A program made the translations under genes and the position numbers. From Lama glama (Eukaryota), in contig CM052841.1 of NCBI GenBank assembly GCA_028534125.1, positions 67,642,001-67,706,000 on the forward strand: a DNA stretch of 64,000 bases, given 5' to 3'. This document shows positions 1 through 61,730 of the stretch, piece after piece; the stretch's first letter is position 1, and each line of letters begins with the position of its first letter. The notes below the pieces were generated by a model. That model ran no database searches, had not been told where the DNA came from, and saw only the letters and a program-made list of their open reading frames with translations.

Positions 1-1317
<1,317 letters not shown>

Positions 1318-6670: not shown

Positions 6671-9428
6671 ATGATTTAGCTGTGTTGACTCAAAAACGCG
6701 GTGGAGTGGAAATGGGAGCAAGGGAAAAGCAGGCCTGGCGACGGGTCAGGACTCCGAGTGCACAGCCCACCAGCGCCCAGGGCGCACGTAGGAGGGAGGC
6801 AGGCCGACCTGGAGCTGGAGGACGTTCGTCTGGACGTCCCCCAAGATGTGGTCTGGGTGGAGGGGCCGGCAGGACGCACCGGGAGCCCCAGCCAGGACAA
6901 CATCCTTTCCGGTAACCCCCAGGAGCAAATCCTTCAACAGACCCACAAGCACAAAATATTCTGCCTCCCACCGCTCCCCCCGCAGCTGACAAACGGCTCT
7001 CCCGCAGACTCGGGAGAGCCCGTCCCAGGCGTGTGCTGGGGGCGACGTGCTCGGCAGCACGAGGACTTGCTGCGCCTTGGACTTTCTCAGGTTCGAAACT
7101 CCTAGACGGGGAGGCCTCGGTGGGCCGGGCTGTTTAAAAGACCCTAATTACGGGAGACAGACCAAGCGAGGATGCCACGTTCAGCGTTTGTGCTGTGTGT
7201 GGCCCCGTAACAAACTCCGCCTAAACGCAGAGGGAGGCAGCGCCCCGTGTCCTCTCACCCTTCCGCGGGGCAGCAGCCTGGGCACAGCTGGCTCGGCCCG
7301 CACCTCCGGACTGCTAACAAACCGCGGGCCGGGACCCGCGCCTGTGACTGAGTCTCAGCTGGAGGCTCAACCGGGGGAAGATTCCACGAGATGCGTGTTT
7401 ATGGGACCTGAATGCAAACCCTGGGTGTGCTCCTCAGGCACGCGTTAGCCCCGCAGGCTGCAGACAGGGCGGCGGGGAGATGTCCAGCTGCCTGGTTTCT
7501 TCATCTGTCACACCCAGGCCAGGGGGCCAGATGTGACCAGGCCCGAGGGGCCTTCTGTGCAGGAGCGTCAGCACCCAGCTGCATGGCAGCTCGCTTCCCG
7601 GCACCAGCCACACCTGTGCACCCGCTGTGTGCTGGACAAGCGATCTCAGGACCCTGGGCACGGCCCCTCTGATGTGACTCGGGGAGCAACTGCCAAGGGC
7701 CCAGCCCCCGCGAGGGGCGCAGCCCTGGGCCGGCCAGTGAGCGGACAAAGGGATAGGAGGACACCCTTTTCACAATGAGCTCAGGTCCACTGGCAGGGAC
7801 TGGACTCCCAGCCAGTACGCTGGGAACCACCCAGAGGTGACAGACCCATAGGCGGAGGGGCGGTTGGCCCAGGATGGGCTGGAGTGTGCGGGAGGAGGTG
7901 TGGCCGAGCCTCAGACCGGAGGGCGGAATTCAGGGATGCACAGGAGACGCCTTTGGAATTCCTCAGGCATGACTCTGTGATGCCAGTCAGTCTGTCTGTC
8001 TGCCTGCCTGCCAAAAGATGGGAATGCTTGTCAGTAGAACGGGCCCTTTGCCCTTGAAGGCTGGACGCTGGAGCTGGTTCTCTGACATCCGGAAGATGAG
8101 AAAGAAAGATGATTGGGGAGGGGCCATGGCTTGGCAGAAGGAGCCTCATTTTCCACGGCTGCAGCCAAGGCAGCAGGGGTAGGGGCATAGCATCGGGCCA
8201 GCTCGATCCAGCCCCCACCTTGGCCACGGCAAATGCTACAGGGATGTGAACACGGAGGGGATGCAGCCCCTGCCCTCGGGGGCCCACCATGTGGGGGAGA
8301 CCCTCGTGCACATGGGAGTGGGGCTGTGGGGTGTTGGCTGCTTGTCCCCCAGCCCCACTGCCCATCGGGCACCCACAGGCCATGGTGAGGGGCACAGACT
8401 CGTGGAGAGGAGTGGGGTCCCTGCAAACGGCCGCCATCAGAGGCTTCACGGGGCCGAGGACATATAGCAAGAGGGAACAGAGGGAGGATATAAACCAAAC
8501 AGCGCGATGGGAGACCCAGCACAGCCGTGCCAGCCGTCACACTGCACGCGATCGGCGGAGCCAGGCAGCGGGGGTGAGGACGCAGGAGTCAGGACGTGCA
8601 GCTGGTGGGAGACACCACGTTGGAACAAGCAGGTTGGAAGGAAAGAACGAAAAACACTCAAACCAACAGGAGCCATGACGCAGGCGCTTTCCGGAGCCTC
8701 AGTCCGGGGTCCTGCGTTCTCAGCAGCGCCTGCAGGAGCTCCCTGGTCCCACAACCAGGCTGGTTCCCAGTGACCCTGGCGGGTGGACGGCCCAGGCCGC
8801 GGGCTGGCGGACGGCAGGGGCGAGCGGGGCGCCTCACCCCAGCCCGATGCACCACCACGGGGCCCTCCGCACTCTTCCCCCGCCCCCACCCCAGGGGCTG
8901 GGACGAGGGTCCCCTCAGGACCGCAGCCTGTCTGAAGGTAACAGACACACGCCACAGGCATGGGGCCCCGGAGGCCCTGCTGGGCGGGGAGGTGCCGGCG
9001 GGAGCGGCCGGGGTGGACAGTTACCACCACCGTGTACGAGGTCGCGGGGTCTCAGGCTGTACCTGCGTCAGTGTGAGTGACCGCCAGTGGTAACTCTGCT
9101 TCCACTTCCTGTCTCAAGTTACATCAAACCTCACGTTCTGTTGGGGCCGTGCCATCGCTCATCTGATCATTGTCTGTCTTCTCTCAATAGAGCAGCTTCC
9201 AAGCGTCTTGGGACCACCTTCTCTGTCCCCCCGTGTCACAGGCCCAGACCGGCGCCCGGCACATCGCACAGGCGCTCACTGAACATCCCTCTTCTGTCTG
9301 CTGCGGGGCCAGCAGAACTGGGAGCCGAATTCCTGTGCCCTGGCCCAGGGACTGCCTTTGGAGCACCAGCGCTGCAGAGTTCTGAAGTTCTGGAGCAGGA
9401 ACAGCCCCCGAGGGCAAGGCAGCCAGTC

Positions 9429-9889
9429 TGTACAGGGACAGGAGTGTGGGGGAGGGGACGGCGTGTCCCGGGGCCCGGCCAGAGCCGGGACGGCCCCGCC
9501 ACGTGAGGGTCCTTGGCTTCCCGCAGGAAGGCGTCCGGGAGTCAGCCGCAGTCGAGTGGGGGTGGATTTACTCAGAGACACACGCTCCACAGACAGAGCG
9601 CAGCCTCCCAGAGACCAGAGGGGGCCGTGCTGAGCGGGGGCTGGCGTTTACGGGCTGAGGACCATCGTAGGCTGACAGGTGCGGGGGCGGGGATTCCCAG
9701 GAATCGGGCCTTTCCTGGTCAGCCTGCCCGGGGCGTCCTGGCGCCTGTGAGGGCCCTCCCCCTGCTGATGTAGTGCAGTGAGCGCATCGTGCAGCTCAAG
9801 GTCACAGGGAGTCGACTCTCCCGCCACCTTGGTGCTAATGGCTGGGCCATCCCTTGGCTGGCTGTGCCCTGCCCCCTCCCTCTGTCTCA
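9429..9889 (-). mobile_element. ERV1 solo LTR, MER41-like (copy A)
   Basis: The minus strand begins TGAGACAGAGGGAGGGGGCAGGGCACAGCC, like the recalled cetartiodactyl MER41-type LTR start. Homologous along its length to copies at 48381-48883 and 50641-51088. Confidence 0.7.
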
Positions 9890-11820: not shown

Positions 11821-12380
11821 CCCCCTCCAGGAGGCCTGCCCGCCCTCCCCGCCGAGAAGGTGCTGAGACCCGGATTCTCAGCCCCCGGGGGCCACTCGTT
11901 CCCCCGTGACTCCGCTGGCGTGGACCAAGGTGGACGTGCGAGGAAGCTTCTCTGCGCGTTTCGCTGGCTGCTCTGCCTTGGTTTACGGGGGCGCAGCTGA
12001 GAACGCAGGGCGGAGGGAGAGCTACTCTTCCTCCCCTGAGAGCAAGCATCTCTGAGCAGCTGCCATAGTCCCGGGCCTCACGCCCCTGGACACTGGTGTG
12101 GTCTCCGATGGACCCTCGATGCTCACGTGACTTTCATGACTTGGGGTCCTGATGCCAACTCCACAGCCGGACAGGGGCTGCCGGGGGTGGGGTGGGGCCC
12201 GGACCTGCCACCTCCATCTCTACTGGGACTCCGGGTAACAGCTGGTTCCAGGATCTGACTCTTCCTTAAGAAGTATGGGAAAATCACCCAGCCTGGTCCC
12301 TCCTGGGGCAGGGGTCAGTGGCCTCCGGGGGTCAGTTTAATGCCCCTCCCCGACCCCAGCCCCACCTCCATGCCCCACAG

Positions 12381-12402
12381 GCCGGAGCAGCTGCAATCTG
12401 AC
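12381..12402 (+). pseudogene. Possible remnant of the ficolin neck exon (PEQLQS)
   Basis: After acceptor ccccacag, CCG GAG CAG CTG CAA TCT = PEQLQS, resembling the recalled pig ficolin neck GEPGQLQSCATG. It sits at the expected position, but the match is short and has no donor. Confidence 0.3.
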
Positions 12403-12659
12403 ACACTACTGGTCTTTCCTCAAAGTCTCAGGGCGCCACCCCTTTGGGATGCCCTGGCCTGGCTCCCGCACTCCTCTCCCCACCAGAAGCCAGCTGCCCA
12501 GCCCGATCCAGGTAAATCCTCACCACACACATCCCTGTCCCAGGCCTCAGAGTCCTCCTCCACCCGTGCAGGTGTCTCTGTTCTCCCCCTCACCCCCCGC
12601 TGCCCCTGCCCTGCCCGGGGCTCCTGGCCTGGCCTCCGCTTCCCGGCTTCCCTTCCCAG

Positions 12660-12785
12660 GACCTGGGACCTGTGAAGAGCTGCTCACCAGGGGACACTTC
12701 CTGAGTGGCTGGCACACCATCTACCTGCCCAGCTGCTGTCCCCTGACCGTGCTGTGACATGGACACGGACGGCGGGGGGTGGACC
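12660..12785 (+). pseudogene. Ficolin pseudo-exon, first fibrinogen-domain exon
   Basis: [32 protein letters not shown], then a 2-bp deletion (CTG TGT GAC to CTG TGA C, creating a stop), then MDTDGGGWT. Donor GTGAG is mutated to ATGAG (12786-12790). Confidence 0.95.
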
Positions 12786-12955
12786 ATGAGTTGGGGGTCC
12801 CCGAGACGGCCGTGTGGTCCTGGGCCAGAGGGGGCCGGGCCAGGAAGTCTCACCTACCGGCTTCTCCACCTGCGGGGAGATCACGTGCGGCCGAGGCCCC
12901 TGGGGCTGGGGGGGCAGCAGGGCCCCGTGTCCCCAGCCCCCTCCCTCCCGCCCAG

Positions 12956-12991
12956 GATTTCCAGCAGAGCCCCGGCCGGGGTCTGTGGTCC
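12956..12991 (+). pseudogene. Truncated remnant of the second fibrinogen-domain exon (VFQRRxDGSVD)
   Basis: Acceptor ctccctcccgcccag, then GAT TTC CAG CAG AGC...GGG TCT GTG GTC, aligning to GTT TTC CAG CGG AGG...GGC TCT GTG GAC. The rest of the exon (FYRDW...GEFWLGN) is not detectable. Confidence 0.55.
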
Positions 12992-13807
12992 TGGGGGTCT
13001 GGAACCCACCTGCCCTGCCCTTAGACCTGGGCCATTGCGCACAGAGGAGCCGGCTCCTCAGTGCCCCCCGGGGCCCCCCTGACAGCGGACAGTGTCACAG
13101 CTGCGCCAACCATAGTCCCTCAGAACACGAGGGTCAGAGCGTGAGGACCCTGGGGTGAAGACTTCGTCCAGCCACGGTGCCACTGGCGTCTTAGAACCCA
13201 GGACAGGAGGGACTGGGCCACTGCCGCTTGGGCCCCACCCCAGCCCTGATTCCACGTCCCACCAGGTCTTCCCTTAGAGGCTGAGGCTCAGGGAAGAGAG
13301 ATTTGTCTCCAGCCCCTGTCCTCTGTCAGCCCCCAAGAACACAACTCTGCACAGCCCCGGGGAGAAGACGGCGGGGGCGCCGGCCTGTGACGGGTCCTGG
13401 GCAGGCAGCAAAACCGCCTGGCTCCTCCCCTCCAGGGCCCCACGCCCGACGCCTGAGCCGCCCCATCGAGTGCGTGCTGGGCCTCCCCGGGTAAAGGAAA
13501 GACTAAGGCGGCCCCCCTGCGTGGGCCGTGAGCCCTCCGCAGGCCAGTCCCGGAAAACGCGTGCTTTGGAGGTAGTGTGACGTGTCCGTCAAATGAATAC
13601 GCGAGAGGAATTTCAGGTGTGGCGGGAGGACCCGTGGGAAGTGGGCTTCGTCCATCCGTCGTATAACCGGGACCTTCTACATGAACTTGCAGGAAGTTCC
13701 CCTGGAAGCCAAGTTCAGACATTGCTTAGGAGTTTACCCAGATTCCCATCTCCCACGCCTGGAGGCAGAGGCGCCTCTGCTGGGCCCTGAAAACCTCCTT
13801 CCGACAG

Positions 13808-13940
13808 GCACCAGTGAGCTCCGGGTGGGCCTCATGGAATTGGAGGGCAACCGCCAACTTGCCAGTAGCAGGCGTTCAAGATGGCGAGCGAGGCGGAGAC
13901 GCGCAGGCTGGTCCTGGGGCCTTTGTCCGGGGCGGGGCAG
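13808..13940 (+). pseudogene. Ficolin pseudo-exon, third fibrinogen-domain exon
   Basis: GTSELRVGLMELEGNRQLA / FKMASEAETRRLVLG / FVRGGAG versus ficolin [46 protein letters not shown]. Two 1-bp deletions; donor changed to GCGAG. Confidence 0.92.
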
Positions 13941-14466
13941 GCGAGGTCTGCATGGGGCGCGGTGGCCTGGGCTGCGGTGCGGCTCCGGGCCCGGGGAGCA
14001 GAGGGAGCCCGCTCAGGGTCCCGGCTCTGCCTCTTCTGAGATGGTGGCGGGCACGGAGCACCGCCAGCGCCTGAATCCACATGATGAGGTGACACGGTGT
14101 ACTCCCAAGTGCACCCATGAGGGTGATGCGCAAAGCCCAGCAGGCGGGGGCGTTACTGTTTATCACCAGCCCTGATGAAGACGCGGAAGGATGGCAAGTC
14201 GGCACGCCCCCCTGAGGGCTCCCTCCTCCGGCCCTGGGGCTCTGCCTGAGGAGCGGACGAGCTCCTGGGCCACAGTGGCCCCCATCCGAGTGGAAGGGTG
14301 CCCTTAGCCGGCAGCGGCAGACCGATGAGGGGGTCCCAGGGCGACTGTGTCAGCAGAGGGTGTTCACTGGGGTCGTGGGGGTGGCAGCCCTGGACATGAC
14401 AGCCCTGACCTGGACCCAGCACCCAGGACTTCCTAGCCCTGAGTGCCTGTGGGGCCGCTTTTCCAG

Positions 14467-14790
14467 GCGATTCCCTGATGTCCCACAACAACCACGCCTT
14501 CTCCACCAAAGACAAAGACACAGACAAAAGTGATGTGAACTGTGCGGAGCAGCACCTGGGGCCTGGGGGGACCACAGCCGTCACGAGTCAGCACCTGGGG
14601 CCTGGGGGGACCACGGCCGCCACGTGTCAGCACCGGGGGGCTGGGGGGACAACAGTTGTCACGTGTCGAGCCTGAACGGCCGTTACCTCGCGGAACCCCA
14701 CAAGACTTTGCAAACGACGTCAACTGGAGGTCGGGGAAAGGGCCCAACCACAGCTACAAGTGGTAGGAGGTGAAGGTGCGGGCCACCTAG
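14467..14790 (+). pseudogene. Ficolin pseudo-exon, terminal exon
   Basis: GDSLMSHNNHAFSTKDKDTDKSDVNCAEQH...NSCHVSSLNGRYL...FANDVNWRSGKGPNHSYKW*EVKVRAT*. Two frameshifts, premature TAG at 14764-14766 and the ancestral stop at 14788-14790. Confidence 0.95.
14550..14666 (+). repeat. Tandem repeat, 3 x 39 bp, inside the ficolin terminal pseudo-exon
   Basis: Units 14550-14588, 14589-14627 and 14628-14666, consensus CAGCACCTGGGGCCTGGGGGGACCACAGCCGTCACGTGT. Confidence 0.95.
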
Positions 14791-15858
14791 GCTGGCCAGG
14801 GCCAGTGGGGGCAGCTGGTCCAGAGCCCTCCCCAGGAAGGGACCGCGGGGCGCTGCACCACCATCCCCGTGGGAGCGGAAGAGTTGAGCCCTGTTCCCTG
14901 GCGTGCCCTCCCTTCCTGGAGGGCGCGCGTCTCACCCCGGAGCCCGTCCCCCCTTGCTCCTCGTGCTGGCGCTCAGCCAGGGCAGGACAGAGCGGTGCGG
15001 GCCTGGGGAGCTGGTGCAGGGGAGGACGGCCCTTCCTGCCCCCGGAACCTGAGAGCGGGGCCAAAGCGCTCCCCTCCAGGGCCCGGGGGGGCCCCACGGC
15101 GGAACAGTCGTCTTTGTCCTTTTGCGGACCTGGGGCGATGACAGTGCCCGGATGGGTGTGGGAGCTCGTCACTGAGCGTGTGCGTCGCTCCTCCCACTCC
15201 GGCCCTGGGTTTGATGCGCAAACTTCTAGGGCAGCAAAGAGCCCACGACACCCCAGGGCCCACAGTCGGGGGTGATCAGGTGCGGGGGCTCCCCCATGTG
15301 CCGCCCCCCCCCGCCCGCTGCACCTCCCTTTCACAGAGGCCGCGCCTCCAGCGGAGGAGACAGTGCCCACCGGCGCAGCTGGGAAGGCAGCCGGAGCTTC
15401 AGCCCGCGCCTCGACCTTTCAGGCCTGAAGGATTCTCCTGGAAGGACCCTCCCCTCCAGAAACCTTGATTTCTTAAGTGCTGCGCTGTTACCGTAGGGGC
15501 AGAGCTGCACCGCCGGCCGCGGAGGCGTGCTCAGCGCGGCCGGCCTGAAACTGCTTCAGCGGTAGCTTAGAACCTGCGTAACCGGGAGCTGGGCTAGGAG
15601 CTTTTTCTTTTTCAAACGATTTTGGTAAGTATTTAATTTGAGCCTTGCTGTAATTTATTTATAAATACTCCTTTGCTTTCAGGACTTGCCAAGACTTATT
15701 TTTTAAGTGTTTATAGAAATGCGGCCAAAGGTCATTGGGGCAGCAAGGGGCTGGTGGAACCAACCGCCTGCGGCAGTGAAGCCCCTTGTATTATACGTGC
15801 ACGTGCATCGGACGCACGCGGGGGCCACCGGAGGACAGACGACCTTGGTGGGGGGAGT

Positions 15859-16064
15859 CCGTGGGCGTGGGCGTCGCCCACCCCTCCCCAGCTGGCCCAG
15901 ACCTCCTCCCAGCAGCCTCTGCCTGCTTCCAGGACTGCCCTCCACGGCCCAGGCGCCTTCCCCCAGGCTGGGCCATGGCTGCTCTGTTGAGGGTGTTGGG
16001 AGCTGGGACACAGGACAGGAGGACACGAGGCAGGAGGGCAGCACCCCCTGGAGAGGGCAGGGCC
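15859..16064 (+). repeat. Dispersed direct duplication, copy 1 (paralogous to 26335-26687)
   Basis: Shared blocks such as cccctcc(c/a)cagctggccc(a/g)gac and ccaggctgggcc(a/c)tgg...gagggtgt(t/c)gggagctg...ggaggacac. This copy lacks ~150 bp present in the other. Confidence 0.8.
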
Positions 16065-16991: not shown

Positions 16992-17077
16992 GGGGGGGCT
17001 GTAGCTCAGTGGTAGAGCACGTGCTTAGTGTGCATGAGGTCCGGGGCTCAATCCCCAGTACCTCCAACAAGAAACAA
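16992..17077 (+). mobile_element. tRNA-Ala-derived SINE (Vic-1-like, camelid)
   Basis: gggggggctgtagctcagtggtagagcacgtgcttagtgtgcatgaggtccggggctcaatccccagtacctcca plus a short A-rich tail. Has an A box and a degenerate B box; matches the recalled camelid SINE consensus. Confidence 0.8.
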
Positions 17078-17489: not shown

Positions 17490-18175
17490 AGTTAGTCCGT
17501 CTGTTACTGAGGTACACAGTTGGTTCACAGCGTTGTGCCAGTTCCTGGTGCGCAGCACAGCGATTCAGTTGTACGCGTGTGTATTCTTTCCCATTACAGG
17601 TTATTCCCAGGTGTGGGATGCAGTTCCCTGTGCTGCGCAGCAGGACCTTGCCGTCCGCCCGTTTTACGTGTCGTAGTTCGTCTCTGCTCATCCCAAGCTC
17701 CTAACTCATTCCTCTTCCTCTCCCCCCTCAGTTGTAAGTTTGTTCTCTGTGTCTGTGAGTCTGTTTCTGTTTTATAAATAAGTTCACTTGCGCCAAGTTT
17801 TAGACTCCACGTATGTATGATCTCACATGGTGTTTGTCTTTCTCTGTCTGGCTCACTTCACTTAGTGTGACCATCTCTGGGTCCACCCAGTTGCTGCAAG
17901 TGGCATTATTTTATTCTTTCTTATGGCTGAGGAGTATTCCATTGTATATATGTATAACCAGACCTTCTTTATCCCGTCATCTGTCTGGACTTTGAGGTTT
18001 CTTCCATGTCTTGGCCATTGTAAACAGTGCTGCTGTGAACACTGGGGTGCACGTGTCTTTTCAGATTAGAGTTCCCTCCGGATGTATGCCCGGGAGCGGG
18101 GCTGCCGGACCACAGGGTGAGTCTGTGTTCAGCTGTTGCAGGATTCTCCACGCTGTTTTCTGTAACAGCTGCACC
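17490..18175 (-). mobile_element. L1 LINE 3' end (cetartiodactyl type, 5'-truncated)
   Basis: Antisense L1 3'UTR/ORF2-end motifs: tttgttctctgtgtctgtgagtctgtttctgttttataaataagttca, tggcattattttattctttcttatggctga, ttccatgtcttggccattgtaaacagtgctgctgtgaac. Confidence 0.9.
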
Positions 18176-18959: not shown

Positions 18960-19459
18960 NNNNNNNNNNNNNNNNNNNNNNNNNNNNNNNNNNNNNNNNN
19001 NNNNNNNNNNNNNNNNNNNNNNNNNNNNNNNNNNNNNNNNNNNNNNNNNNNNNNNNNNNNNNNNNNNNNNNNNNNNNNNNNNNNNNNNNNNNNNNNNNNN
19101 NNNNNNNNNNNNNNNNNNNNNNNNNNNNNNNNNNNNNNNNNNNNNNNNNNNNNNNNNNNNNNNNNNNNNNNNNNNNNNNNNNNNNNNNNNNNNNNNNNNN
19201 NNNNNNNNNNNNNNNNNNNNNNNNNNNNNNNNNNNNNNNNNNNNNNNNNNNNNNNNNNNNNNNNNNNNNNNNNNNNNNNNNNNNNNNNNNNNNNNNNNNN
19301 NNNNNNNNNNNNNNNNNNNNNNNNNNNNNNNNNNNNNNNNNNNNNNNNNNNNNNNNNNNNNNNNNNNNNNNNNNNNNNNNNNNNNNNNNNNNNNNNNNNN
19401 NNNNNNNNNNNNNNNNNNNNNNNNNNNNNNNNNNNNNNNNNNNNNNNNNNNNNNNNNNN
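18960..19459. other. Assembly gap (500 N, true size unknown)
   Basis: Run of N; same length as the second gap, so probably a placeholder size. Confidence 0.99.
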
Positions 19460-19550
19460 GGCCAGTGTCCCTGTCGCAGTTGGAGGGCCAGCCTGGCAGT
19501 GGGCTTTCCCACCTGTGTTTGAAAGTAGTCAGGTGAGGAGGCGACACAGG

Positions 19551-19673
19551 GCAGAGCCCTGGCCTTGGAGTCCGCCTTGCCCGAGGGCCGCCCCCCGTAC
19601 TGTGTGTCCTTGGGCAAATCACTCAACCTCTCTGAGCTCTGCCCCTTGGGCTCCCAAGTGAGGACAGGACTAG
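19551..19673 (+). mobile_element. MIR SINE fragment
   Basis: MIR core: tgtgtgtccttgggcaaatcactcaacctctctgagc. Confidence 0.75.
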
Positions 19674-22600
19674 GGCTGTGGGGAGATTTAGATTTAGATA
19701 ACACAAACTTTAAAAGTCTAGTACAATTCGTTTCAAAAGAGTTTCCTAAACAGTGGGTACTTTCAATAAATGGTAACAATAAATATTTATAAGAAACTTG
19801 GGGAATTGGAGTCAACATAACATTTTCACCCCAGACCTTGGGCCTGTGACCAGAGTTCCTGAGCAGGAAGGGGTCCATGTAGTTCCCCTGGAGAGGGGAC
19901 ACATTTGACCCCAGGGCACAGAACAAGTTCTAGGAGAACTGGGACCAGACAGGCATTTCCTTCTGTGGAAAAAATCGATTTTGTTGATTTCAAAAGTAAA
20001 ACATCCTCACATGAGGCGACGTAGAGACCGCGGGGTCGGCCACGCCGTCACCAGAGACGCCAGCCGAGGCGTCTTGGGTGCGTCTCTTGCCTGGCCTTCT
20101 GGGACTCCCTCCCCCAAGGGCGGGCTGGAGGGCACCGATCCTTCCGTAAATATGTCCTCAACCTGGGGGCACGAGGGGCTGGTCTGTCCTCACGGTCAGT
20201 CCCTCTCCAGTGTGGCCCCTCCGCCTGTGTGGGATCCGGAGGGAGGCCACGCTCCCTTGAGACCCCGATTCTGCAGATTCAGGTTTCTGTGCTCACGGAC
20301 CCCAGGTAAGCACGGGAGCCCCTGTACTGAACACTCTAAGGGCGTCTTTCCAGAAAGCCCCTGAGCAGAGGAGAAAAGGAGGGGCGTTCCCCCTCCTCAG
20401 AGGCCGAGCTGAGAGCCGGCTGGGACGCTCCGCGGGGCCGCCGCGGGCTTGAGAAGCAGACGGACCTGGGAGTAAGCCCCGCCCCTCCCCCTCAGACCTG
20501 TGTGACCTGTGTGACCTTGGGCCTGGCCTCCCCGGCCTGGAGGGTGAAGCGGAGATGTTGAGAGTCTTCGGAAGAAGATGCATGGAGAGAGTTTAACCTG
20601 GGATGCTATCCTCGGTCAATGAGTGGCCAGTTACTAGCTTCCAGGGACAGGAAACGCAGGTCCGTCTCACCTGGACAGGTGTGGGCAGCCTGGGCAGCCG
20701 GGGTCCTGAAGCACAGGAACCAGGGGAGCTGGCCAGCGGGCCCGGGGCCACGGCTACCCGCTCAGCTGCGTGTCCTCTGGTCTTCGACCTCGCTCCTGCA
20801 GGCAGAGGAAGCCACCCTCGTCTGTGCCCACTGGGACGCCCACTTCCTGCAAGCACTTGGATTAACCCAACAGGAGGTGCCAAACGCTCCTTCCAGCTGG
20901 GCCCCGTCGGGCTGCCCGCTGAATCAGGCTCACTTCCCCTGGCAGGAGGGCCCCCAGGACCCCTCTGTGGGAAAGTGTCGGCCTTGTCTGTGGCCTCAGG
21001 AAAGCCCAGCCCGCACACCCCTTCCTGTCACCCAGCCAGACCCAGACGCCGCCCTGCGCCTCGACGGGGCATAAGGAAGGGCTGGCTGAAGACAGCTCCC
21101 TCCCTCCTCTGAGTTCCAGAATACACCAGTGACTGAGGCAGCCACTGGGCACTTACCACAAAGGAAGGGAGAAAGTTCCGAGCCCTGACGTGCCAGATAC
21201 GACTCACGCCAGCCGCTAGCGCTCGGATTTCCCAGGTGGAAAACTGACGTCACATAGCGAGAACGGGCTAGGCGTCATCTCAGGCCTAACGCTCTGGGGA
21301 TCACCAGGTCTGTTCACCGCAGCTGAAGATGAGGCTGCGCCCCGTCCCCCCACATCCCAGAGGCTGTGCTTCACACCGTGTGCTGCGAAGCTTGCACTCA
21401 GCCTGAACACGAGGTGGGCGTTTTCTGAAGGGCTTCTGCAGACGCGTAGAAGTGCTCACTAAGGAGAGTCAGGTGGTGACCCCATGGGAGGAGCTGAGAG
21501 CAAACTGTCCCGTGGTTTGAGAATTCTCCAGGCTGGTCTGCGTGGGCTGGCCTTCCACCTGCACTAACCACCCGAGTACGAAAGAAGTGGGGCATGGCCA
21601 GACCAGAGGGCTAGCACAAGAGGGGACACGGAACCTCAGGTCCACCTCTGTGGGCACTGGAGTGACTCCAGACTTTGCAAATTTCTGTGCAGTGGCTCCA
21701 GCCCACTGAGACCGAGGGCGCAGACAAGCTGGACTGCCTTGGGTGCCATTCTGCCTCCCTGAGCTGCTGGATGGGGTGGCCTGTCCCCGCAGGACAGGTC
21801 CGGGTTCCATCTGTCAGGCAGGGGAGAGAGGCAGCAGCTCTCTGCCCTTCAGCCCCACCTGCGACCATGCCCGTTCCGTGCCAGGACGCCTCCTCTTCTC
21901 TGCTTCGTGACACAGTGACTGCAGGCGAGGTGTCGACAGCACGGTCAGCCAGCACCGTAACGCCCCTAGGCGTCTGTGGGCCTGTCTGTCAAGTTCAGAC
22001 GTCTGAAAGTTGGGTCAGTACAAGTCCTTTGACTTCTGGCAGCGGTTGGGTGTTTGGGGCCATCTGTTCTCATAAGGACTAACCGACAAACCATGACCAA
22101 AGTGATTTGCTTGAAGGCACAGCCAAGTCAACCATGTAGAAAAAGGCTTCTTTCTACGCTCTTGGAGAGACAGAACCTGGAGGGGGAAGCCAGCACGCGG
22201 GGCCTCTTTAATGCCGGTCCCCGAAAGACGGCTGAGAAACCAGCCGGCCACCTCGCCAGCTTTGCAGAGCTAAAGGTCAGGTGCGGGGGTCGAAGGTCTG
22301 TCAGGGGAGCGGGTTTGGGTAGAATCCAGGAGGGGTCCCCCTGGGAATAAGGGTGAGCCATCGCTGGCCAGCCTTAGCGTGGACTGCAAGCTGGTTTTGA
22401 GACGTCTGAGTGCCCAAGAGAAAGCGTCAGCTCCTGAGGTTCTGTTAAGGTCCTTCGAGATCGCCCGTGTCCCCTGCCTCAGCTAAACCGACGCTAACCT
22501 TCTCTGAAGGAGAAGCGCATCCTCCCAGGACTCACGTGATTTCTGCAGACGCGCACGTTGCTCACGTTAAGTGTCAGCGCGCTGGGAGGCAACCAGGTCC

Positions 22601-23039
22601 GCGAGGGTAAAAGACGCCCCTTGCAAGAACAAACAGAAAGAGCTGGCTGCAGAAACAGACGCCGAAGCTGGAGGGGCCGGAACGACAACACAGGTGCTGG
22701 TGCAGACGGAAACACAGCCTCAGGGGTGAGGAGCCAGCAGAGACGCTCAGAAGCACTGCCCGTGGTCAGAGCTGTGCCGCGCGAGCGGCACGGTCCGCGC
22801 CGGAAGGAAGGGAAAAGAGCTGCAGAGGAGCCGGGAAGAGGGGAGGGCACAGCTCGGGGGCAAAGCGCATGCGGGGCGCGCACAAGGTGCGGGCTCAATC
22901 CCCAGCGCCCCTGTTAGTAAGTAAGTTAGTAAATGGGTAAATAAACTTAATTACCTCCCCCTCCCCCAAAAGAGCCGTGAGATAAGGCTTTAAGAGGAGA
23001 GAGAACTGAAAAGGCGGCACACCGCCGCTATAATTTTCA

Positions 23040-26296: not shown

Positions 26297-26334
26297 GTGG
26301 GAGGCATGGGTCAGGGGCAGACCAAGAGGTCAGA

Positions 26335-26687
26335 CCGTGGACATGGGCATCACCTGCCCCTCCACAGCTGGCCCGGACTTCCGCCCAGCATCCTCTCTGC
26401 CTGCTTTCAGGACCGCCCTCCACGGCCTGGCCACCTGGCCCCGCCCGTGCCAGGCCTCAGTTTCCGTTGGGTGTTTCACAGTCTGGGAGCAGGAGCCCGC
26501 TGGCTGGTGGCTGCTGTAACCCTGCACCGAACCGCCCCCCACCCACAGCTTCGCTACCTGCCCCGCCCCCCCGGAGCCAGGCTGGGCCCTGGGTGCTCCA
26601 CCGAGGGTGTCGGGAGCTGTGTCCCTGGGGACAGAGGACGGGAGGACACAGGGCAGGAGCGCGGCAGCCCCCGGAGCGGGCGGGGCT
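26335..26687 (+). repeat. Dispersed direct duplication, copy 2 (paralogous to 15859-16064)
   Basis: See copy 1. Confidence 0.8.
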
Positions 26688-48380: not shown

Positions 48381-48883
48381 TACAGGGAAAAGAATGTGGG
48401 GCGAGAGGAGGGCCGTGTCCCAGGTCCCGCCGCGTCCCCGGGACACACCCGCCACGTGAGGGCCCCTGGCCTCCCACAGGAAGCAGCTCATCAGTGAGCC
48501 ACAGCTGAGTGGAAGGGGGCTCACTCAGAGATGCACGCTCCGTACACGGGGTGCAGGCCGGCTCACTCAGCCGGGGCGCCGCCGGGAGGCGCGGGGAGAC
48601 TGGATTTATGGGCTTGGTAGCTTCAGATGCTGACAAGTGGGGGTTATCGCAGCTGCTTTGGGGAGGAGTGGGGAGTCCCGGGGACGGGGCTGCCCCTGCC
48701 CCTGGGCCGTTTCCGGTCAGCCCAGCGCAGCCCTGGCCCCGGAGGGGACCCGTTAGCAGCTGCTGTGTTTCAGCAAGCCTGTGCTGGAGCACAAGGCTAC
48801 TGGGCGTGGAACCTTCCACCACCTTCGGGCCAATGGCTGTCATTCCTTTAATGGCTGCGCCCTGCCCCCTCCCTCCTGCCTCA
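48381..48883 (-). mobile_element. ERV1 solo LTR, MER41-like (copy C, more divergent)
   Basis: Same architecture as copies A and B (gccacgtgaggg..cctggc..ccc.caggaag; ends atggctgtcattcctttaatggctgcgccctgccccctccctcctgcctca). Confidence 0.7.
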
Positions 48884-49296
48884 CCCCAGCCTCCTGGTTC
48901 CCAAAGAGGGTAGCTGAGGCCAAGAGCGGCGTGAGCGGGTCGTGCAGGGGCTGGTGGCCGAGCCGGGACGAGGGCCTGGGGCTGCTGGTTCTCTGCCTGA
49001 GACTCCCATGAGGTGCTAATAGTCGTGAGCGCTTACTAAGACACAGAGTGAGTTCCTTCCATGGGACTTCTGTGGCTTTTAAAAAGCCCGAAGTCACGAT
49101 GTCTGGAACCCAGTCTAGAGGACGCTGGCTGCAGTATCCCGAGGGGGCGCCCTCACTTCCGCTACCGCCCCGCCCACAGACCCCCAGCGCCACCACTCCC
49201 CCCGCCCCCGGCCCCGGCTCTCTCAGCTCCCTCTGCCCGGCGGGGTGATGGTTCCCGGGCAATAAGGCCGTCCCCAGCCGGGCTGCAAGCACCTGG

Positions 49297-50235: not shown

Positions 50236-50640
50236 ATCTGCGGGCGCCTCTTCCCAACAGCTCATCCTGGGGCGTAACTGCTCCCCAAGGTGCCAGAAAT
50301 AAAGTGAAGAACTTCCCGTGAGCGGCTGCGATGCTGAAGAGACCTGTTCCAAATGGGGAAGAGTTGGCCGCCCAGGGCCTCCGCCCCCGCTGTTGAAGTG
50401 GAATCTGCTGACGCACCAGAGGAACAGAAATAAAACGACTGCGAGTGAGAACGAGAGCAGGTAACGAGCACACGGCAGCAGCTGCACCGCGGCGGCGGCC
50501 AGGGGGCGGCGCGCGGGTGATGCTGGGTGGGGGCTCGGCCACGCGGTGGCTTCACGGGGCCTTGGGACAGGCACCTCCTGGGACCCTCCGAGGCACCGGC
50601 CACAGCCGTCTTTGAGGCCTCAGACCCACGTCAGCCAGTC

Positions 50641-51088
50641 TGAGACAGGACAACGTGGGGGAGGGCGCGGCGTGTCCCAGGGCCCGGCCCCGCCACGTGA
50701 GGGTCCTTGGCTTCCCGCAGGAAGGCGTCCGGGAGCCAGCCGCAGTCCAGTGGGGGTGGATTTACTCAGAGACACACGCTCCACAGACAGAGCGCAGCCT
50801 CCCAGAGACCAGAGAGGGGTCCGTGCAGAGCGGGGGCTGGCGTTTATGGGCTGAGGACCGTTGTAGGCTGACAGGTGCGGGGGCGGGGATCCCCAGGAGT
50901 CGGGCTGCCGCCGCCCATGTCCTGGCCTCTCCTGGTCGGCCCGGGCCGTCCTGGCGCCCGTGGGGGCCTGTCCCACGCTGACGTAGTGCAGTGAGCGCAT
51001 CGTGCAGCTCAGGGTCACAGGGAGTCGCCGCTCCCGTTGCTGTGTCACTCCCTGAGTGGCTGTGCCCTGCCCCTCCCGCCTGTCTCCA
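50641..51088 (-). mobile_element. ERV1 solo LTR, MER41-like (copy B)
   Basis: Near-identical core to copy A at 9429-9889. Confidence 0.75.
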
Positions 51089-52499: not shown

Positions 52500-53598
52500 G
52501 GAGCTTCACAAAAACATACGTGCATCTACATTTCCTTTGGCAACTGTCCCTTCGAGAGATGGAGCTCATCTCCGTCCCCTCGATGCAGGCTGGCCTTGGG
52601 GACCAGTGGTCTAAGGAGCTGAACGTGGATGATGTGACGGAGAGGACTCCTGAGACGTGGCTGGAAATGGAGTTGCAGCCTCCTCCTTTTTAAAAGAAAA
52701 ATATATATATATTATTGAAGTCCGTTTATTTACACGTTGTGTTGATTTCTAGTGCACAGCAAAGTGATCCAGTTCCACGTGCAGATACATACTACACATA
52801 TGTTATTTTTCATATTTTTCCCTTGTGGTTTATTGTAGGACTTTCAGTGTGGCTCCCTGTGCTCTGCAGCAGGACCGTGCTGTTTATCTGTCTTATATAC
52901 AATAGTTTGTGTCTGCAAATCCCAAGCTACTGATTCATCCCTCCCCACCCCTTCTCCCCGGTGGCAACCGGGAGCTTATTTTCCATATCTGTGAGCGGGT
53001 TTCTGTTTTGTACATAGATTCAGTTGTGTCATATTTTAGATTCCACATGTAAGTGATACTTGCCTTTCTCTGCCTGGCTTACCTCACTTATGTGACAATC
53101 TCTCGGTCCATCCACGTTGTGGCAAATGGCATTATTTTGCTGACTTTTATGGCTGAGGAGTATCCCGTTGTGTGTATATAACCAGACCTTCTTTACCCAG
53201 CCGTCTGTCGGCGGACATGTAGGCGCCCCCACGCCTCGGCTGCTGTAAATCATGCTGCACTGGTTCTTTTTTTGCATCTCCTCCTTGATTCCTCTCTTGG
53301 ACCGTTCATGCTTGGGAGGCCACCTGCCCTGGGCTGAGTTCAGCTGAACAGCCCTACTGAGAGGCCCCCGCCACGTGGTGCGCCATCTTGGAAGCGGCTT
53401 CCCAGCCCTGGCCAGGCCTTCGCATGGTGCAGCCCGGCTGCCACCTTGACTGCAGCCTCGGGAGAGACAGGAGGCAGAAGCCTTCCTTTAAGCTGCTGTT
53501 GAATTCGTGTCCCACAGAAACTGCGAGATGGGGGATGTCTGTCGTTAGAGCCTCCACATTTTGGGGTAACTTGTTACACAGCAGTAGGTGACTAACAC
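52500..53598 (+). mobile_element. MLT1 (ERVL-MaLR) LTR split by an L1 insertion
   Basis: 5' part gagatggagctcatctcc..ccct..atgcaggctggccttgggac; 3' part gccatcttggaagcgg...ccttgactgcagcctc...cccacagaaactgcgagat...ttttggggtaacttgttacacagcagtaggtgactaaca. Confidence 0.8.
52689..53271 (-). mobile_element. L1 LINE 3' end with target-site duplication
   Basis: Same family as 17490-18175; flanked by TTGCAGCCTCCTCCTT (52673-52688) and TTGCATCTCCTCCTT (53272-53286). Confidence 0.88.
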
Positions 53599-59669: not shown

Positions 59670-61730
59670 ACCAGCCCAGACGGAGCAACGGGCCAGACCC
59701 CTCCCCCTCCTGAAACAGCTGAAAGAAAAACAAAAAACGAGAACATTGGGCAAAATACACCAAGCAACGATTCCTAAGAGTTCAGGCGTCAGACAAGATA
59801 AGAACGCACCCCGAAAGGCGTGGGGCAAAGGAGGAGAGCCCGGGCTGTTCCAGCGCGCGCCCCCGGAGAGCGGCCAGGTTGTAGTCGGGACGGAGCCCAG
59901 GAGGCCCCGACGCAAAGGGATGTCCGAGTGGAGGAAGTGGAGCTGGCGCTCGGGGGGCTGCGGCAGCCGGAGCTTGCCGGAGAGAGCTGCGGAGAGCCCA
60001 GAAGTCAGCAGAGGGGCCACACGTCTTCGGCCAACCATCACACTGAGGCCGGGGCAGGTCCGCCCAAAAGGGTTCCAGGGAACAGTCCTGGGGACTCACG
60101 GCGCCTGTTCCCACAGCCAGAGTGTACGCCGCCCCACGTCATCGGCGCCCAGTGGCGTCCTCGAAAGAGCGCCGAGCAGGAGCCGCAGCCCAGACGCCGC
60201 TCAGCTCCCACCCGAGGAAGCTACCCAAGAGGACAGGCGTTCCCGGAGAAAGCTCGCGGGTACGGACGGGGTTACCCACAGTCCCGAGTGTTAGCAAGGC
60301 AAAGCGCGTGACATCCCGCCTCTAACCAAACTCCCCGGCGCCCAGAGGGCGAGAAGGTGCAGCCCGCGCTGAGGAGGGAGATCGAGCGACTGAGAGCGAG
60401 CCACAAATGGCACAGACGACAGAGTGGGTGGATGAGGACTGAGCAGGCTAATTGATCGCCGTAGATTCAAGATGTTGCAGGAAGAATAAACGCAGCAAGT
60501 AGAGACACGGAGGATACAGGAGGAGCCAAATCAAACTTCCGGACGTGGAGCCACGACGTCTGAGACGAAACACACACGGACAGAACTGACAGCAAGGCTG
60601 ACGCTGAAGAATAAGTTTGCTGAAACCTANNNNNNNNNNNNNNNNNNNNNNNNNNNNNNNNNNNNNNNNNNNNNNNNNNNNNNNNNNNNNNNNNNNNNNN
60701 NNNNNNNNNNNNNNNNNNNNNNNNNNNNNNNNNNNNNNNNNNNNNNNNNNNNNNNNNNNNNNNNNNNNNNNNNNNNNNNNNNNNNNNNNNNNNNNNNNNN
60801 NNNNNNNNNNNNNNNNNNNNNNNNNNNNNNNNNNNNNNNNNNNNNNNNNNNNNNNNNNNNNNNNNNNNNNNNNNNNNNNNNNNNNNNNNNNNNNNNNNNN
60901 NNNNNNNNNNNNNNNNNNNNNNNNNNNNNNNNNNNNNNNNNNNNNNNNNNNNNNNNNNNNNNNNNNNNNNNNNNNNNNNNNNNNNNNNNNNNNNNNNNNN
61001 NNNNNNNNNNNNNNNNNNNNNNNNNNNNNNNNNNNNNNNNNNNNNNNNNNNNNNNNNNNNNNNNNNNNNNNNNNNNNNNNNNNNNNNNNNNNNNNNNNNN
61101 NNNNNNNNNNNNNNNNNNNNNNNNNNNNNGATGAGGACTGAGCAGGCTAATTGATCGCCGTAGATTCAAGATGTTGCAGGAAGAATAAACGCAGCAAGTA
61201 GAGACACGGAGGATACAGGAGGAGCCAAATCAAACTTCCGGACGTGGAGCCACGACGTCTGAGACGAAACACACACGGACAGAACTGACAGCAAGGCTGA
61301 CGCTGAAGAATAAGTTTGCTGAAACCTAAGACAGAGAGACAGAAACTTCACAAAATAAACCACAGAAAAGGAAAAAGGCCGGAAAAATAAGTGAGGGCAT
61401 GAGAGAACGGTGGGGCCGCTTCAAGCACCCTGACAAACATGGAACTGGAGTCCCTAACGGAGGGAGAGGACGCTCAGGGAGAAATATGGGAAGACATAAA
61501 AACAAACATTTTCTAAATTTGATAGAAACCGCGAATCCACAGCTCCAAGGCCCTCGGTGGGTTTCAAGCACAGGAAACCGCAAGCACGACGACGCCAAGG
61601 CTGAAAGCGACCCGGTTCCTCACGCCTGTGACCCAGAGGACGTCTTACAGGCAGTCAGCGCAAGAAGGGCACGCTACGCGCAAGAAGACAGAGAGGGGTG
61701 CCAGGCCCTCCGTGAAACAACGGAGCTGAT
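59670..61730 (+). mobile_element. Ancient L1M 5'UTR plus ORF1 remnant
   Basis: 59670-59880 resembles an L1M 5' end (cctgaaacagctgaaag...gggcaaaatacac). ORF 61399-61758 (RERWGRFKHPDKHGTGVP...FLNLIETANPQLQ) is a degenerate match to L1 ORF1p (ELWDxxKRPNIxxIGVPE...FPNLMKxINPQIQ). Confidence 0.7.
60630..61129. other. Assembly gap (500 N) flanked by an identical 199-bp overlap
   Basis: 60431-60629 is repeated exactly at 61130-61328. Confidence 0.97.

Follow-up and report, generated by a model that had tools for sequence, protein, structure and literature searches.

Decayed FCN2- and FCN1-type remnants in the llama genome and the probable loss of both ficolins

Known losses of ficolin genes

The mammalian ficolins are three; they bind microbes and trigger complement. 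In mouse and rat, Fcn3 is a pseudogene, a single ficolin gene at a locus different from that of the FCN1/FCN2 pair. Together with MASP proteases, ficolins and MBL set the lectin pathway in motion (accessible parts of PMC3078537 and PMC10855846), and most non-human species have two ficolins according to the available text of the review PMC3078537. Lineage-specific loss of lectin-pathway recognition genes is a kind of event that is already known. The accessible text of PMC7498332 describes the erosion of FCN2 in goat, sheep, Tibetan antelope and cow, and that of FCN3 in the Cape golden mole and the tenrec. The FCN3 case, as given there, is also a lineage-specific ficolin loss, but it concerns another gene at another locus, and only one gene. 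The ruminant case (accessible part of PMC7498332) is nearer to the locus described here, as the same gene was lost in another lineage of even-toed ungulates. Ruminants keep an intact FCN1-type protein, whereas in the llama sequence FCN1 is broken too. Pig, hippopotamus and whales keep FCN2, so the ruminant and llama losses would be independent under the accepted tree of even-toed ungulates.

Gene names can obscure this comparison. Three cattle and sheep proteins named 'ficolin-2' (P0072, P0065, P0053) group with FCN1-type proteins by exon 1 and the last exon, a grouping that fits the published ruminant loss of FCN2 and indicates that the names mislead. The panel of PMC7498332 included alpaca and Bactrian camel, neither of which its accessible text lists for FCN2, and FCN1 is not mentioned in that text. 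The method described there was conservative, since only extreme outliers were kept and gaps were masked. That both camelids are missing from the accessible list of PMC7498332 nevertheless weighs against calling a camelid loss lightly.

The plus-strand remnant

The window analysed here is a 64,000-nucleotide stretch of the llama (Lama glama) genome. It holds remnants of two ficolin genes, assigned below to FCN2 (plus strand) and FCN1 (minus strand), which face each other tail to tail after a fibrillar collagen gene. We take the collagen exon to belong to COL5A1 by its sequence and synteny; in human, FCN2 and FCN1 presumably follow COL5A1 in the same tail-to-tail arrangement. The plus-strand ficolin exons lie in order within 12,381-14,790 and are separated by introns. 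The features of this part of the window are as follows:

1,171-1,317, plus strand: last coding exon of the fibrillar collagen gene, the synteny anchor (Pfam COLFI, E 4.6e-17)
12,381-12,411, plus strand: probable FCN2 neck exon remnant, EQLQS-like and weak (frameshift-aware score 25 against pig FCN2)
12,660-12,785, plus strand: FCN2 remnant, first fibrinogen-domain exon (PDB ficolin-2, E 2.5e-13; HMM; frameshift-aware alignment)
12,956-12,969, plus strand: FCN2 remnant, 14-nt stub of the next exon (AG acceptor and stub seen by eye)
13,808-13,940, plus strand: FCN2 remnant, penultimate exon (exon HMM; frameshift-aware alignment)
14,467-14,790, plus strand: FCN2 remnant, last exon (PDB ficolin-1, E 5.5e-6; Pfam PF00147, E 1.8e-5)
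14,550-14,666, plus strand: tandem array of three 39-bp units over the former GAWWY..CH motif (repeat and alignment)
14,792-14,914, plus strand: segment that follows the stop directly and resembles read-through sequence in a blue whale FCN2-type model (tblastn)

Exons were scored with exon-wise HMM profiles built from 67 intact ficolins, with six reversed or shuffled windows as the null. Three of the FCN2 exons reach 63, 19 and 38 bits, whereas the null never rises above 4.3 bits for any of the three. No exon HMM match above the null was obtained for the neck exon at 12,381. Among stop-free pieces of the remnant, the top PDB matches are ficolin-2 and ficolin-1, at the E values listed, and the C-terminal fibrinogen-like domain is closest to ficolins. 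Pfam recognised two of six pieces and returned nothing from the short or shifted ones. The best protein-database matches are pig ficolins at 86% identity, and the leading matches are artiodactyl (best 120 of 171). The segment after the stop matches the blue whale model with a tblastn E of 2e-7 and 54% identity over 41 amino acids. Introns are kept at ficolin positions, which rules out a retrocopy or processed pseudogene. By exon HMM, no signal-peptide or collagen exon of this remnant scores above the null upstream in the window, and collagen-like Gly-X-Y exons have no match clearly above the null on either strand of the window. The missing collagen-like exons are read as deleted, decayed or, for FCN1, inside the scaffold gap described below. 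Collagen-like tblastn matches across the window stay at the level of shuffled controls and are attributed to chance in GC-rich DNA. A 'WAIAHRG' match in the intron at 13,028 is likewise at chance level (score 31) and lacks HMM support.

The fibrinogen-domain exons were compared with the exon lengths of intact whale FCN2. The exon at 12,660-12,785 measures 126 instead of 128 nt owing to a 2-bp deletion, carries an in-frame TGA at 12,755 and ends in the donor ATGAGT, with AT in place of GT. The exon that follows has 130 nt in intact genes and is represented here by the 14-nt stub from 12,956; the rest of it and its donor are not detectable, the best HMM score for it in the whole window being 0.7 bits. 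The exon at 13,808-13,940 has 133 instead of 135 nt, with two 1-bp deletions, and its donor is GCGAGG, a GC donor that by itself is not necessarily lethal. The last exon has 324 instead of 248 nt because the 39-bp unit is present three times, adding 78 nt, and two 1-bp deletions lie in it as well; a TAG at 14,764 stands in place of Ser, and the exon ends in VRAT and a stop. Each of the three 39-bp units has lost one and the same base and shows the WGD change; the differences between them number 3, 6 and 7 over 39 bases. As the missing base and WGD are common to the three units, the frameshift and the WGD change came first and the triplication later.

Features of a functional ficolin are missing from the remnant: it lacks a signal peptide and an open frame, and neither its splice sites nor its GAWWY/CH ligand-site region are intact. 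Such a sequence cannot code for a ficolin. FCN2 is almost certainly dead in this genome. An initial sequence-only reading had described ordered ficolin exons with introns rather than a retrocopy, the 2-bp deletion with its stop, four 1-bp deletions, donors changed from GT to AT and GC, an exon that is mostly missing, the premature TAG, the decay of GAWWY to WGD and the absence of recognisable upstream signal-peptide or collagen exons. These observations hold; the triplication of the motif had escaped mention.

Errors of sequencing or assembly could mimic such damage in a region whose GC content is about 65%, in an assembly that has gaps, one of them false (a 199-nt overlap). Against this stand ten lesions of five kinds, a triplication whose units have diverged, and many missense changes at invariant residues. 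Raw reads bear on the same question through a word test, in which one sample of 363 words from 12,000-15,500, a stretch that ends short of FCN1 exon 1, was used for all runs. Shares of 0.79-0.96 of these words were reached by 20 of 24 listed runs, which come from 9 studies and carry 5 organism labels. No RNA run is listed among the holders, from which nothing follows on expression. Since 393 of 3,471 words overlap one or more of the ten lesions, the share in a genome free of lesions would be capped at 0.887. This ceiling is exceeded by ten of the twenty runs, nine of which, in three studies, do not include the best holder, a possible source of the assembly; in runs other than the best holder the share rises to 0.93. 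The lesions are therefore not all errors, although the word shares confirm no single lesion. The earlier argument that the lesions speak against sequencing error is borne out, and we regard error as a very improbable explanation of the remnant.

The paralogue can be assigned from the last exon. At ten diagnostic columns the remnant has the FCN2-type residue in seven and the FCN1-type residue in none, with three that are neither or unreadable, and 55 of 74 residues are identical to whale FCN2; for artiodactyl FCN1-type proteins the figure is 43-47 of 74. In a tree of 27 rows the remnant falls outside the starred FCN1 clade (98/98), on a long branch (0.4) that belongs to no starred set. Because it has an FCN2-type last exon, lies on the strand of COL5A1 and is the first of the pair, the remnant at 12,381-14,790 is assigned, by position, strand and sequence, as the FCN2 orthologue. 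The loss of this particular ficolin, as first proposed, is supported. FCN2 (ficolin-2, L-ficolin; ficolin alpha in pig) of pig, peccary, hippopotamus and whales has the same exon order and phases, and shares with the remnant the diagnostic residues of the last exon and its VRAT end. Unlike those genes, the remnant has no open frame, exons 1-3 are undetectable, one exon is almost deleted, and the GAWWY motif is frameshifted and triplicated.

The minus-strand remnant and its surroundings

Downstream of the FCN2 remnant, on the other side of a scaffold gap, the opposite strand carries three further features:

18,960-19,459, no strand: 500-N scaffold gap whose true size is not fixed by the assembly (no overlap between its flanks)
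19,460-20,670, minus strand: remnant of FCN1 intron 1, which continues into the gap (matches to pieces of dolphin and beluga FCN1 models that stem from introns)
20,671-20,771, minus strand: FCN1 exon 1 remnant, signal peptide (HMM 15.4 bits against a null maximum of 6.1)

The start position of exon 1 reads ACG instead of ATG, and the exon measures 101 instead of 103 nt, with two 1-bp deletions. A TAG occupies codon 6 of the ACG frame, and the GT donor is kept. No ATG occurs between 21,072 and this donor, and the frame of the 3' part of the exon has a stop upstream and then no Met. The remnant is identical to pig and whale FCN1 at 23-24 of 32 residues; the comparison with dolphin FCN1 (24 of 32) leaves eight that differ, including prolines in the signal core. 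The intron matches dolphin and beluga intron-derived sequence at 19,891-19,844 (E 7e-4) and, colinear with it, at 20,542-20,302 with a borderline E of 0.009, to be read against a reversed-window control that gave two hits under 0.01, the best at 0.006. In the 64 kb no second exon-1 match is clearly above the null, the next best scoring 6.0 against a null of 6.1 bits. Exons 2-9 of FCN1 were not found by exon HMM in the assembled sequence of the window, and they may be deleted or lie inside the 500-N gap. A dolphin intron piece that would place exon 2 just inside the gap was rejected, as 2,194 of 2,936 random windows score at least as high (21).

By its FCN1-type exon 1 and intron 1, and by its orientation opposite to FCN2, the remnant at 20,771-19,460 is assigned as the FCN1 orthologue. 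FCN1 (ficolin-1 or M-ficolin, ficolin beta in pig, and the single ruminant ficolin of that type) likewise has this exon 1 and intron 1 downstream of FCN2. In contrast to the intact gene, the remnant has lost its start codon, contains two frameshifts and is without exons 2-9 in the assembled sequence. Both FCN1 and FCN2 are thus broken as assembled. The initial claim that no ficolin exon follows the plus-strand remnant stands in the sense that none is intact; it had overlooked the broken FCN1 exon 1 at 20,771-20,671 on the minus strand. That exon lends direct support to the suggestion of the same reading that the whole cluster was lost.

Several other elements were observed around the two remnants. 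GGAAGTG motifs lie upstream of the FCN1 exon 1 remnant at 20,850-20,830 and 20,940-20,930 on the minus strand (by eye), and we take them to resemble the ETS-type sites of myeloid promoters. Direct similarities of 76-83% at 15,856-16,063 and 26,332-26,686 flank this exon. An element of about 470 bp is present in three direct copies (9,420-9,888; 48,381-48,885; 50,632-51,086), the first and third of which are 80% identical overall and 98% identical over 134 nt, a pattern that would fit recent conversion in patches or a repeat of low copy number. A tRNA-like short repeat at 16,994-17,066 on the plus strand, which ARAGORN annotates as tRNA-Thr and Rfam as tRNA, is probably a tRNA-derived SINE, in our view resembling the camelid Vic-1 SINE; a more decayed look-alike is seen by eye at about 22,850-22,910. 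Rfam and ARAGORN gave nothing beyond the one tRNA-like element. Two fragments at 17,625-17,985 and 52,854-53,209 are 72% identical to each other and are presumably L1-like. The same 199-nt sequence, without a single difference, stands on either side of a second 500-N gap (60,431-60,629 and 61,130-61,328); the contigs there probably overlap, which would make this gap a false one.

Extent, age and meaning of the loss

The preferred explanation is that FCN2 and FCN1 are both lost and that no intact replacement exists, which we consider probable. The remnants occupy the syntenic site, and both gene types are intact in pig, hippopotamus and whales, as expected for unitary pseudogenes. The protein database bears on an intact copy elsewhere. 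Among the ficolin matches there is no camelid name (best 120 of 171, 1 of 2, best 120 of 655), in listings that consist of cluster representatives and carry the names of those representatives; the taxa among the matches listed are pig, peccary, hippopotamus, whales, ruminants, donkey, rhinoceros, bats, rodents and afrotherians. No close match to the remnant exons appears among the protein matches listed (best 120 of 171, best 120 of 655), no full-length camelid ficolin stood out among 28 unnamed or odd matches compared, and none is present among the printed members of ten clusters. The absence of camelid FCN1 and FCN2 from these listings is a pointer toward the lack of an intact copy, and it is suggestive only, because 51 and 535 matches lie beyond the best 120. 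Metagenome matches to mammalian ficolin (80 of 226 loci) have a best-segment identity of at most 74% and are set aside as distant fibrinogen- or collagen-like genes.

Both remnants could be real and yet be dead duplicates, with an intact copy of FCN1 or FCN2 type surviving inside the gap or at another place in the genome. The 500 N at 18,960-19,459 could stand for a longer stretch, and near-identical paralogues may be hard to assemble from short reads. We consider this unlikely, as the two genes expected at the site have each been located, with the gap lying between them, and the listings just described offer neither a close exon match nor a camelid name. It is also conceivable that only FCN2 is dead, as in ruminants, which keep an FCN1-type protein after the loss of FCN2; FCN1 would then be alive in the gap with a different first exon, or the exon 1 lesions would be assembly errors. 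Those lesions are known from this assembly alone, the donor of exon 1 is intact, and exons 2-9 are missing from what was assembled. Three separate lesions within 101 nt, the eight differences from dolphin FCN1 in 32 residues, the lack in 64 kb of a second exon-1 match clearly above the null and the fact that the best 120 of 655 matches include no FCN1-type last exon from a camelid make a living FCN1 distinctly improbable. We therefore retain the loss of both genes as the explanation.

The depth of decay provides an estimate of age. Invariant columns were defined from 14 intact artiodactyl ficolins, and intact genes were compared by leave-one-out; the measure is a protein-level proxy. The last two exons of the FCN2 remnant are changed at 14 of 60 scored invariant columns, compared with 0-4 of 65-69 in intact genes (Fisher p 0.005 for the comparison with the most changed of these). 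Inactivating mutations are thus accompanied by relaxed selection, as in a unitary pseudogene. The implied neutral change is about 0.11 per site (0.06-0.19). At neutral rates of 1.5-3.5e-9 per year, this corresponds to a central age of 32-74 million years and a full range of 16-127, an estimate that depends on these rates and on 60 columns. The camelid lineage is younger than the upper values, so only 'old' is a safe description. The Old and New World camelids split 16-17 million years ago, and the depth of the decay suggests that the loss of FCN2 is probably older than this split.

Together, these results suggest a sequence of events. Both genes would have left selection early and decayed neutrally over tens of millions of years, probably from before the Old/New World camelid split, and no intact replacement would remain elsewhere in the genome. 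The loss was probably tolerated because other recognition proteins of the lectin pathway cover the role; MBL, collectins and perhaps FCN3 may feed the same MASP step, as the accessible parts of PMC10855846 and PMC3078537 would allow. We lean towards a loss of FCN1 and FCN2 that is common to all camelids, with FCN3 perhaps kept. The FCN3 locus is outside the window; among 150 representatives no FCN3-type sequence was recognised, and the one candidate compared is not FCN3.

A joint origin of the two losses can also be envisaged. From exon 2 to the penultimate exon, FCN1 and FCN2 are identical at 204 of 210 residues in pig, 207 of 210 in gray whale and 211 of 213 in false killer whale, and the last exons of these species agree at only 58-63 of 82. 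A near-identical middle beside a diverged last exon points to gene conversion in pig and whales; by this route, a single lesion in the near-identical part might have ended up in both genes. In the boldest form of this idea, camelids are free of ficolins: FCN1 and FCN2 died together before the camelid split, possibly through gene conversion, FCN3 is gone too, and MBL and collectins alone are left. We give this form a small chance.

No report of a camelid ficolin loss was found in the literature, a search whose scope did not extend to subscription papers, bioRxiv supplements and TOGA tables. The accessible supplements of PMC7468183, PMC12905343, PMC5865188 and PMC6386725 contain no FCN or ficolin term, nor do the main texts of PMC12905343 and PMC6598621, and the accessible text of PMC7924851 holds nothing relevant. 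The double loss of FCN1 and FCN2 is thus probably unreported so far, and automated gene-loss tables may already list it. The initial description of the loss as lineage-specific needs qualification in that FCN2 loss is also published for ruminants (accessible part of PMC7498332).

If the joint loss is true, it would constitute a second, independent loss of FCN2 among even-toed ungulates beside that of ruminants. Veterinary immunologists should then not expect FCN1 and FCN2 proteins in camelid serum or leukocytes. Lacking both M- and L-ficolin, such a livestock lineage would serve as a natural double knockout for studying the contribution of these proteins beyond MBL, FCN3 and collectins.
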